A stretch of DNA of 64,000 nt from Candidatus Peribacteria bacterium RIFCSPHIGHO2_01_FULL_55_13 (GTDB lineage: Bacteria; Patescibacteriota; Gracilibacteria; Peribacterales; Peribacteraceae). The DNA is taken from assembly GCA_001788925.1 (NCBI GenBank), contig MFXS01000004.1, positions 50,464-114,463 on the forward strand, in the 5' to 3' direction. Position numbers and translations under genes: made by a program. This document shows positions 20,288-61,354 of this stretch, in pieces. The notes beneath the pieces were generated by a model. That model worked only from the letters and a program-made list of their open reading frames with translations, did no database searches and was not told where the DNA came from. Numbering within the stretch: the first letter of the stretch is position 1; every line of letters begins with the position of its first letter.

Positions 20288-20378
20288 GGAGAGATGGCCG
20301 AGTGGTCGAAGGCGCGCGACTCGAAATCGCGTAGGCCCCAAAAGGGTCTCGAGGGTTCGAATCCCTCTCTCTCCGCCA
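20288..20378 (+). tRNA. tRNA-Ser (anticodon CGA), CCA encoded
   Basis: Acceptor GGAGAGA/TCTCTCC, anticodon loop CTCGAAA, long variable arm, T-arm GAGGGTTCGAATCCCTC, GCCA end. Confidence 0.93.
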
Positions 20379-59744: not shown

Positions 59745-60578
59745 ATGAAGGCGTACTTGGATTTACTGCAGCATATCCTCGATAGCGGCGCGGCAAAAGA
59801 CGACCGAACGGGCACGGGCACGTACTCGATGTTTGGCGCACAGCTGCGGTTTGATCTCAGCAATGGATTTCCCATGCTCACAACGAAGAAGCTTTCTACG
59901 CGTGCGATCATCCACGAACTTCTCTGGTTTCTGATGGGTTCTACGAACATCGGCTATCTCAAAGAGAATGGTGTTTCGATTTGGGATGAATGGGCGACAG
60001 AGCGCGGGGATCTCGGGCCTGTGTATGGCAAGCAGTGGCGGGCGTGGGAAGGGCCCAGCGGCCGCGTGATCGATCAGGTGAGCGAGGTCATCGCGCAGAT
60101 CAAGAAGCGACCGCATTCGCGCCGTCTTATCGTCTCTGCATGGAACCCTGCGGACCTTCCGGATGAATCGATCAGTCCGCAGGACAACGTGGAGCAGGGG
60201 AGGATGGCGTTAGCACCATGCCATTGTCTGTTTCAGTTCTATGTCGCGAATGATCGGTTGAGTTGCCAGCTCTATCAGCGTTCCGCCGATGTCTTTTTGG
60301 GCGTTCCATTCAATATCGCATCCTATTCCCTGCTCACACACATGGTCGCGCAGGTCTGTGGGCTCGGTGTAGGGGATTTCGTCCACACCTTTGGCGACGT
60401 GCATCTCTATAAAAACCACGTGGATCAGGCGCGTCTTCAATTATCACGTGCGCCCAAGGCGCTGCCGCAGCTCAAGATTAATCCGGAGGTGAAATCCATC
60501 TTTGATTTCCGGTTCGGAGATTTTGAGGTTCTGAATTATGACCCGGAGCCGAGCATTAAGGCGCCGATTGCGGTGTAA
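59745..60578 (+). CDS. thyA: thymidylate synthase (ThyA type)
   Basis: [31 protein letters not shown] and [12 protein letters not shown] motifs. Confidence 0.95.
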
Positions 60579-60589
60579 TGCCGCCGCGT

Positions 60590-60660
60590 TGGTGGAGCGG
60601 AGGGGAATCGAACCCCCATTCCTTCGATTAGCAAGTCGAGGAATGCACCATGCCCGCCCC
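60590..60660 (-). ncRNA. aberrant tRNA-like element (acceptor/T-arm/CCA with G3:U70, no canonical D or anticodon arm)
   Basis: GGGGCGG...GGGGGTTCGATTCCCCT-CCGCTCC-A-CCA; central 9-bp bulged hairpin with 8-nt loop CTTGCTAA. Confidence 0.35.
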
Positions 60661-60768
60661 ACAACGGCGGCATATGAACCGTAACAAGGGATCTTGACAT
60701 GCACGAGTGCACAAACGTACACTGTATGCACGATTAGCAAGTCGACGGATGCACTATAGGTGCTCGGA

Positions 60769-60790
60769 CCCCCGCTTCTAGCGGGGTTTT
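60769..60790 (+). terminator. terminator-like hairpin CCCCCGC-TTCTA-GCGGGG-TTTT
   Basis: Plus-strand orientation, 190 nt after the thyA stop. Confidence 0.45.
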
Positions 60791-60850
60791 CGTATGTGCA
60801 AAAATCTTTTTGTTTTAACCAATTTTGGCATTTGCTGGTAGGTTGGATCC

Positions 60851-61354
60851 ATGCGCATCTCCCTTATTGCCGCCGCCTCGGAAAACAACGTGATCGGCGA
60901 TCATGGGAAGATTCCGTGGAACATCCCGGAAGACATGAGGCATTTCCGGACACTCACAACCGGAAAGCCCGTGATCATGGGGAGGAAGACCTATGAATCC
61001 ATCGGGCATCCGCTTCCGAAGCGTCCAAATATCGTCGTTACGAGGCAGAAGGGATATATGGCAGGAGGGTGTCACGTTGTTGCTTCGCTCGACGAGGCAT
61101 TGCAGATTGCCCGCCTGCCGGACGGGCAGGCAGATTGCAAAAATGCTGAAGAAGTCTTTGTCATTGGAGGAGGGGAAATCTATCGCGAGGCACTCGAAAA
61201 AGCAGACCGCATTTATCTCACGCGCGTGCATGCGACTGTTCCGGGTGATGCGTACTTTCCGGAGTTTCATCCGGAGCGTTGGAATGCTGTGAGTGAAGAG
61301 AGGCACGAGGGGAATCCGGCGTATACATTCTTGATGTACGAGAAGAAGTTGTAG
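60851..61354 (+). CDS. folA: dihydrofolate reductase
   Basis: ISLIAAASENNVIGDHGKIPWNIPEDMRHFRTLTTGKPVIMGRKTYESIG. Confidence 0.93.
   Translation: MRISLIAAASENNVIGDHGKIPWNIPEDMRHFRTLTTGKPVIMGRKTYESIGHPLPKRPNIVVTRQKGYMAGGCHVVASLDEALQIARLPDGQADCKNAEEVFVIGGGEIYREALEKADRIYLTRVHATVPGDAYFPEFHPERWNAVSEERHEGNPAYTFLMYEKKL

Follow-up and report, generated by a model that had tools for sequence, protein, structure and literature searches.

The spacer between thyA and folA in a Candidatus Peribacteria genome holds a compact module of two divergent RNA genes, one for a 71-nt tRNA mimic with the acceptor end of an alanine tRNA and the other for a small RNA (sRNA) complementary to the body of that mimic. 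The two probably constitute an SOS-controlled pair of RNA toxin/antitoxin-like character, in which the mimic is neutralised by its antisense partner and kept under the control of LexA. The window is the whole 64,000-nt stretch of DNA that was analysed, G000:C4:50464-114463 of the source genome (G000; 1.17 Mb in 43 contigs). Within it, the spacer extends between two plus-strand genes, from the end of thyA at 60578 to the start of folA at 60851, and the closest relative of the FolA protein (72% identity) comes from an uncultured Candidatus Peribacteria bacterium. Computation establishes that both genes and their signals are present, that the mimic has the fold described below and a pairing that co-varies with its partner, and that the module has an operator and is polymorphic in its insertion.

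The tRNA mimic, an alanine-type tRNA-like RNA labelled TLD in the table, reads GGGGCGG-GCAUGGUGC-AUUCCUCGA-CUUGCUAA-UCGAAGGAAU-GGGGG-UUCGAUU-CCCCU-CCGCUCC-ACCA on the minus strand, from 60660 to 60590. Its acceptor stem is paired at 7/7 positions and includes G3:U70, the discriminator is A73, a CCA end is encoded, and the T-arm (GGGGG-UUCGAUU-CCCCU) is canonical; a preliminary description of this locus had pointed to each of these elements, and all are present in the sequence. Since 41/43 tRNA genes of the source genome encode CCA, the CCA of the mimic is ordinary for this organism. The remainder of the molecule is made up of a mini D hairpin of 3 bp (GCA-UGG-UGC) and a long arm of 9 bp with one bulged A and the 8-nt loop CUUGCUAA, without a canonical D or anticodon arm. 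RNAfold reproduces this fold, which had been proposed previously, at -30.8 kcal/mol. The enclosing flank pairing that had also been suggested holds as well: with TGCCGCCG.../...CGGCGGCA included (60576-60676), the folding energy reaches -52.8 kcal/mol (z = -4.7). This outer stem joins a 5' leader to a 3' trailer that begins immediately past the stop codon of thyA, which lies on the opposite strand. At other loci the leader and trailer pair with differing sequences (GCCACCGC/GCGGUGGC, CCCCGCUG/CAGCGGGG and GCCGAG/CUCGGC), such that the stem co-varies between loci, and we presume that it serves in the processing of a precursor. ARAGORN made no tRNA call at 60590-60660, and Rfam at its gathering thresholds returned no match to the element, its only match in the window being a tRNA-Ser at 20288. 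The sub-threshold matches were to tmRNA (transfer-messenger RNA, RF00023; 28.7 bits, cut-off 47) and to mascRNA (27.9 bits, cut-off 42.5). By both tools, therefore, this is not a normal tRNA. The 5-bp anticodon stem and 7-nt anticodon loop of a canonical tRNA-Ala were not found, the corresponding arm being 9 bp and bulged and its loop 8 nt long. Inspection by eye of 4 aligned copies of the module revealed no conserved open reading frame.

The element is a member of a conserved RNA family. A covariance model built from three copies retrieved members of 69-72 nt from many genomes of the taxonomic family, often several per genome, and we collected 21 loci, of which the 20 intact copies come from 17 genomes. 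The source genome has a second copy at C28:7635-7705, and two copies are found in the congener G004. In the 20 intact copies, 7/7 positions of the acceptor stem are paired, with many compensated variants, G3:U70 and the terminal ACCA occur in 20/20, and so does the complete identity set of alanyl-tRNA synthetase (AlaRS), namely G1-C72, G2-C71, G3:U70 and A73. The same copies share a T-loop of the form TTCRAnT, a mini D hairpin with GG in its loop, and a long arm of 7-9 bp closed by an 8-nt loop with the consensus AUYGNCAA. Two structural subtypes can be distinguished: type I, to which the window copy belongs, has a 3-bp D hairpin, and in type II an unpaired G8 precedes a D stem of 3-4 bp. Because MAFFT misaligned type II against type I, the two were analysed separately, by counting pairs on ungapped or nearly ungapped alignments and with 500 shuffles and slid registers as controls. 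In type I, 96.3% of cells were paired and 14/24 pairs had changed on both sides; in type II the values were 96.1% and 15/23. In neither case did a shuffle score as high (0/500 each), and slid registers brought the paired cells down to 45-59%. The fold is thereby supported by covariation in 19 relatives, and of the four options that the preliminary description had left standing (a decayed tRNA, an attachment-site (att) scar, a tRNA-like sRNA or a regulatory module of thyA-folA) it was the tRNA-like sRNA that proved right.

The one tRNA call made on a G000 copy bears on whether these molecules might decode. ARAGORN annotates the C28 copy as a 71-nt "tRNA-Ser(cga)", and a U of the loop occupies the position of U33, as would suit an alanine tRNA that used the 8-nt loop as its anticodon loop and either read quadruplets or acted as a missense tRNA. 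An arm of 7-9 bp rather than 5 and a loop conserved as AUYGNCAA instead of a free anticodon make such a role very improbable, all the more since this loop is the predicted landing site of the partner sRNA and the genome already has three normal tRNA-Ala genes. False tRNA calls of the "tRNA-Ser(cga)" kind will be present in the automatic annotation of these genomes.

The partner gene lies on the plus strand, divergent from the mimic. In the region 60500-60900, a generic scan returned a single promoter-like site, of the sigma-70 type, and the hairpin at 60770-60786 followed by TTTT is the sole terminator-like site; from this lone plus-strand promoter and lone terminator we deduce an sRNA gene at about 60730-60790. 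The predicted RNA consists of a 5' seed, CGAUUAGCAAGUCGACGGAUGCAC (60731-60754), a hairpin GCAC-UAUAG-GUGC (60751-60763) and the intrinsic terminator (60770-60786) with its U-run. The preliminary description had observed both the terminator-like hairpin and a direct repeat, and both exist, though they were not recognised there as parts of a second RNA gene; the second copy of the repeat is at 60731-60757, and the first is at 60625-60651 rather than at 60628-60655. Nucleotides 2-28 of the sRNA pair with nucleotides 10-36 of the mimic in 26 bp with one mismatch. The duplex of the seed has an energy of -42 kcal/mol, compared to -15.2 +/- 3.0 for shuffled seeds, and the two RNAs cofold at -74.7 kcal/mol versus -53.6 when folded apart.

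This relationship recurs throughout the family. The repeated segment differs among loci, and within a locus it matches the 3' half of the D hairpin, the 5' strand of the arm and the loop of the local mimic. A promoter of the form TTGACA-N16-18-TAnnnT precedes the repeat on the opposite strand at 17/18 partner genes, the complementarity starts 5-8 nt past the -10 box, and a small hairpin and then a GC hairpin with a T-run follow, giving predicted RNAs of 59-86 nt. The match score within loci has a median of 15, compared to 8.2 +/- 1.25 across loci, and the own flank is the best match for 18/21 arms. By RNAduplex, own pairs reach -34 to -62 kcal/mol and cross pairs -25.5 +/- 6.3, with the own partner best for 15/18 mimics. 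Even the two modules of the source genome do not cross-pair (own -49.4 and -50.5, cross -25.2 and -20.7). The partner is thus a small RNA with extended, pair-specific complementarity to its target, as is characteristic of RNA antitoxins. We also considered tmRNA or tRNA-Ala as its target and rejected both, since the duplex energies of the seeds with congener tmRNA and host tRNA-Ala were at the level of shuffled seeds.

The partner gene is usually divergent and upstream, with its seed 81-129 nt from nucleotide 1 of the mimic, and it is located downstream of the mimic in G018, G088 and G009. A phylum-wide sample of 150 genomes, searched with the type I model at a strict threshold, contained members in four other families, with the partner in tandem downstream (G206, G266) or convergent (G042, G256:C4). 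The complementarity is kept through divergent, tandem and convergent arrangements, which argues for an RNA-RNA interaction in trans and against a DNA repeat. We abandoned the upstream repeat as an att duplication, as a template like that of a diversity-generating retroelement, or as an alternative pairing strand within one transcript, because the opposite strand has a consensus promoter and a terminator, and the seed begins where transcription is predicted to start. The same evidence bears on the idea that the element is a decayed tRNA or tmRNA pseudogene with the repeat as the att scar of a mobile element. A lack of calls by gene finders, a direct repeat and an insertion polymorphism would all be expected of such a remnant. 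Pseudogenes, however, would not keep a strict and invariant alanine identity set or compensatory covariation in all four helices, nor would a scar form the 5' end of an opposite-strand gene with its own promoter and terminator, keep its complementarity across arrangements and occur inverted, with a tandem sRNA, elsewhere; no integrase gene is adjacent. We therefore give this possibility very little weight. A degenerate copy does exist in another genome (L079; G131:C22:6908-6974), with no 5' acceptor strand and no recognisable partner sRNA. Judged by its sequence, this copy is a real decay of a module, and it looks different from the copy in the window.

The position of the module in the genome is variable. 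The thyA-folA spacer of G006 is plain, 17 nt long and module-free, whereas that of G004 contains a module with a different arm and seed whose mimic is on the plus strand, inverted relative to the minus-strand mimic of the source genome; in G001 and G003, folA has another neighbour. A comparison of this spacer among relatives had been proposed in the preliminary description, where plain spacers together with the lack of a transcript would have spoken against its reading; the plain state is found in one congener and an inverted module in another. From these sequences, the module (~215 bp, two RNA genes) appears as an insertion polymorphism, either mobile or gained and lost. Other copies adjoin unrelated genes (uppS/polyprenyl synthetase, FemAB, superoxide dismutase, pheS-like, pyrE-like and trigger-factor genes), and reading the translated neighbours by eye disclosed no common functional theme. 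Neither an integrase gene nor a target-site duplication was seen at the module, and a phage origin was discarded after blastn found no match among 50,697 phage records. A cis-regulatory element of thyA-folA, for instance a structure in the 3' untranslated region of thyA or a terminator, could explain why the element starts just past the thyA stop codon, and the plus-strand terminator could end thyA transcripts. With an empty 17-nt spacer in one congener, an inverted module in another and all other copies beside unrelated genes, this regulatory role, one of the four options mentioned above, is the explanation to which we attach the least credence of all.

A further feature connects the mimic to the DNA damage response. 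Among the (A/G)TGCAC motifs that had been listed for this spacer, which are indeed present, one is part of a LexA-type operator that was previously missed. In the window, this palindrome overlaps two -10 boxes, that of the sRNA on the plus strand (TACACT) and, on the minus strand, a candidate one for the mimic (TACGTT, 60719->60714); the two divergent promoters overlap in this one palindrome, within 60707-60723, and may be mutually exclusive. Among the 21 loci, 12 have GTGTAC-N4-GTACAC upstream of the mimic at one of two fixed distances from its nucleotide 1, 22-27 nt in six genera and 59-65 nt in genus g1, which includes the window. The box contains a -10-like TACGAT, TACAAT or TACGTT, and its position holds also where the partner gene lies downstream, which indicates that it belongs to the promoter of the mimic. 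The perfect palindrome occurs in 4 copies in the source genome, versus 0.07 expected. Perfect or near-perfect boxes are found at the start of lexA and upstream of recA, ssb and several other genes (see table), and lexA is preceded, at a distance of 38-72 nt, by a box in 4/4 relatives checked, which represent four other genera of the family. Five relatives that were searched have 9-14 boxes each, compared to 0-3 for a reversed-pattern control. Such a distribution is typical of LexA operators, and GTGTAC-N4-GTACAC is thus the probable LexA box of this genome, defining a small SOS regulon. As the same palindrome precedes lexA, recA and ssb, and as the sequence at the mimic promoter matches the organism's own box, the mimic is predicted to be an SOS gene that is induced upon DNA damage.

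Features of the module and LexA-type boxes elsewhere in the source genome (positions without a contig refer to the window)
Feature	Position	Strand	Basis
Mature tRNA-like RNA (TLD), predicted ends	60590..60660	minus	sequence, fold, covariance model match 96.6 bits, family covariation
5' leader strand UGCCGCCGUUGU, extends the acceptor stem by pairing with the 3' trailer	60661..60672	minus	fold of 60576-60676
3' trailer strand ACGCGGCGGCA of the leader-trailer stem	60579..60589	minus	sequence, fold
LexA-type palindrome GTGCACAAACGTACAC, one mismatch from GTGTAC-N4-GTACAC	60707..60722		genome-wide motif search
Sigma-70-type promoter of the sRNA: TTGACA (60694-60699), 18-nt spacer, TACACT (60718-60723)	60694..60723	plus	10/12 positions
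Partner sRNA, ~62 nt, predicted	60730..60790	plus	terminator scan, fold, duplex energies, own- versus cross-locus tests
Box, perfect or near-perfect, twice at the start of lexA (C41:5395-6042; Pfam LexA_DNA_bind + Peptidase_S24)	G000:C41:5401-5441		
Two boxes upstream of recA	G000:C9:2877 and 2959, ahead of C9:3114		
Box before ssb	G000:C7:22460		
Box before a PIF1-type helicase gene	G000:C18:17554		
Box before comM/UPF0102	G000:C25:26918		
Box before a ComEC-like gene	G000:C7:51517		

The alanine-type acceptor stem and T-arm raise the question of how the mimic relates to tmRNA. Like the TLD-only tmRNA-like RNAs discussed below, it is short, has an acceptor and T-arm of the alanine type and lacks a tag; the mRNA-like domain, tag frame and pseudoknots of a tmRNA are not found in its 71 nt. 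The sub-threshold match to RF00023 covers the ends of the model alone, with 326 model positions replaced by 26 nt. A canonical tmRNA was not found in the G000 assembly by Rfam, by ARAGORN or by blastn with a congener tmRNA. The congeners G003-G006 have an ordinary tmRNA of ~406 nt, with the acceptor stem GGGGAUG and a tag ending in ...AFAMAA, and in relatives the tmRNA gene often lies no more than a few hundred bases from the end of a contig. For this reason the tmRNA of the source genome is most likely unassembled, though absence and an assembly gap are not distinguishable here; a repeat may adjoin the gene. We rejected the notion that the mimic is a reduced or permuted version of the genome's tmRNA, given that congeners have a normal one, that RF04321 scores only 21 bits and that no conserved tag frame was seen upstream.

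It is conceivable that the mimic acts instead as a tag-less mini-tmRNA in ribosome rescue, induced when DNA damage generates broken mRNAs and buffered by the sRNA. RNAs of this type that lack a coding sequence (CDS-less tmRNAs) exist, for example in jakobid mitochondria, and are thought to be functional (PMC11915505). Such a role would fit the alanine-type acceptor and T-arm, the end-to-end though sub-threshold RF00023 match and the presence of SmpB (G000:C7:64874-65287), and the predicted SOS control is compatible with it. What makes it unlikely in our view is that G004 has its ordinary tmRNA besides two mimic modules, that multiple copies per genome occur, and that a dedicated antagonist RNA would be unexpected for a beneficial factor. 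Moreover, the acceptor and T-arm of the mimic resemble those of both tmRNA and tRNA, the host tRNA-Ala included, and tRNA-Ala itself is at least as similar to tmRNA as the mimic is.

A different use of a charged, non-decoding RNA is suggested by one neighbouring gene. The C28 mimic is followed, 22 nt after its CCA and on the same strand, by a FemAB-family gene (G000:C28:7727-8722, L042:2228-3226; Pfam FemAB, E = 3e-42), and at G088:C31 a FemAB homologue lies ~1 kb downstream of the mimic, again on the same strand. The FemAB gene at C28 also contains an in-frame run of about 4 copies of the heptamer GTGGAAA (G000:C28:7871-7900). Being without an anticodon and hence kept off the ribosome, the mimic could be a dedicated alanine donor for a peptidoglycan bridge enzyme of the FemAB/FemX type, with the sRNA tuning the supply, and the invariant alanine identity set does suggest that charging matters. 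A general linkage to FemAB was rejected, as only 2 of ~21 loci are near such a gene; these may represent one conserved synteny, the window copy and most others have unrelated neighbours, and the SOS operator and cognate antisense RNA would be left unexplained. The proximity is possibly functional or mere synteny, and we regard the donor role as improbable, a little more so than tag-less rescue.

For the SOS-controlled, antisense-neutralised mimic that we favour, the following sequence of events can be proposed. Gene 1, on the minus strand, would give rise to a precursor with paired leader and trailer, from which RNase P cleavage at G1 and 3' trimming to the CCA would presumably release the 71-nt mimic. 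This RNA has kept what AlaRS needs (G3:U70, A73 and CCA) as well as the elbow of a tRNA (the T-loop and the GG-bearing mini D hairpin), with the 9-bp arm and its conserved 8-nt loop standing where the anticodon arm would be, and it could be charged by AlaRS. Gene 2, on the plus strand, would produce the ~62-nt sRNA from its near-consensus promoter and intrinsic terminator. The 5' end of the sRNA would land on the 8-nt loop and then invade the D hairpin together with the arm's 5' strand (nt 10-36), and this invasion would unfold the body of the mimic, destroy its L-shape and thereby neutralise it. LexA bound at the mimic promoter would normally repress it and permit its induction in the SOS response, and after LexA cleavage the mimic might exceed the antisense sRNA. 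The free alanylated mimic could then engage the translation and ribosome-rescue machinery (EF-Tu, SmpB, stalled ribosomes) with no decoding and no tag. Transcript ends, processing and relative levels are predictions in this scheme, and it is from sequence that we infer that the RNAs are expressed and the mimic alanylated, in which direction control runs and what effect the pair has on the cell.

The action of the free mimic is the weakest step of this model. There is a precedent in that a TLD-only molecule is reported to inhibit tmRNA strongly, perhaps through titration of SmpB (Mao et al. 2009, as cited in PMC4131195; also PMC11915505). Several considerations weigh against the scheme. In the account that PMC4131195 gives, the inhibition of tmRNA by a TLD-like RNA was independent of its chargeability; yet the alanine identity set never varies here, which suggests that alanylation is required and that the function may not be a simple titration of SmpB. 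The tRNA-Ala genes of the source genome outscore the element on RF00023 (42.3, 41.4 and 31.2 versus 28.7 bits), so "tmRNA-like" is no more specific a description than "tRNA-Ala-like". The LexA box is lacking at 9/21 loci; in this genus it extends over the sRNA promoter as well, so that repression by LexA may affect both genes. Finally, the retention of several copies per reduced genome of the candidate phyla radiation (CPR) could mean that the module is not selfish and benefits the cell in a housekeeping capacity. A more far-reaching proposal, which we advance only tentatively, is that of an RNA-only, SOS-triggered stress or addiction module, in which an alanine-charged, anticodon-less mimic would jam or redirect rescue and translation, a co-evolving antisense RNA would serve as the antidote, and the whole would spread as a mobile unit of ~0.25 kb across CPR/Patescibacteria.

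CPR bacteria account for much of the diversity of bacteria, yet their RNAs have hardly been studied. If our interpretation is true, they contain a widespread pair of non-coding RNAs that is outside Rfam, which has no family for either RNA, and, as far as we could find, outside the literature. The literature searched contained no published description of a mimic with an antisense partner; only the TLD-only tmRNAs and the CreTA RNA toxin turned up. New here are the operator for SOS control, the division into two structural subtypes and the polymorphic insertion, and the predicted LexA box would define the first SOS regulon for Candidatus Peribacteria. The pair raises the question of what a non-decoding alanyl-tRNA mimic does in cells equipped with both tRNA-Ala and tmRNA. 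Its predicted LexA control would tie DNA damage to the translation and rescue machinery through RNA, and the antisense partner would offer a built-in genetic handle. On the practical side, such elements lead to false tRNA calls ("tRNA-Ser"), and assembly breaks are possible.

Among known systems, close regulatory parallels are tisB/istR-1 and symE/symR, SOS-controlled type I toxin-antitoxin loci in which a LexA-repressed target is countered by an antisense RNA from a strong promoter and the target mRNA encodes a peptide or protein toxin. The mimic modules resemble them in having a weak target gene with predicted LexA control and a strong, apparently constitutive antisense gene, and in being compact, multi-copy, variable in position and pair-specific; like type I loci, they include at least one decayed copy. 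They differ in that the target is non-coding, with no conserved reading frame. At the level of the molecule itself, the mimic shares with tRNA-Ala and the minihelix substrates of AlaRS the pairs G1-C72, G2-C71 and G3:U70, A73 and CCA, and its T-arm is close to that of host tRNA-Ala; unlike a tRNA-Ala, it has no cloverleaf, no 7-nt anticodon loop and no variable region, and its D arm is a hairpin of 3-4 bp. The mascRNA/menRNA family (RF01684) likewise folds into a small tRNA-like shape in which the D arm is reduced, as reflected in the match of 27.9 bits, which is below the cut-off of 42.5. In contrast to the mimic, mascRNA is eukaryotic, is processed from long non-coding RNAs and has neither an alanine identity set nor an encoded CCA.

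TLD-only or CDS-less tmRNA-like RNAs are known from mycobacteriophage DS6A (tmRNA Website ID 11587), jakobid mitochondria and Mallomonadaceae plastids (PMC4131195, PMC11915505). These RNAs and the mimic are alike in their length of about 65-75 nt, their alanine-type acceptor and T-arm and their want of a tag frame or usable anticodon, and the inhibition of tmRNA by a similar molecule sets a precedent for an inhibitory role. Unlike them, the mimic is multi-copy and, in congeners, exists alongside a normal tmRNA; its structure includes a mini D hairpin and a long arm whose loop is conserved, and it is always accompanied by a cognate antisense sRNA gene and also has a LexA operator. The type VIII system CreT/CreA presents a further analogy: CreT sequesters a rare tRNA, and CreA acts via Cascade as a transcriptional repressor (PMC8501985). 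As in that system, toxin and antitoxin would both be RNA and the translation apparatus would be the target, provided that the mimic is toxic. Unlike CreT/CreA, control here is predicted to operate by direct RNA-RNA pairing, and the candidate toxin is itself shaped like a tRNA.

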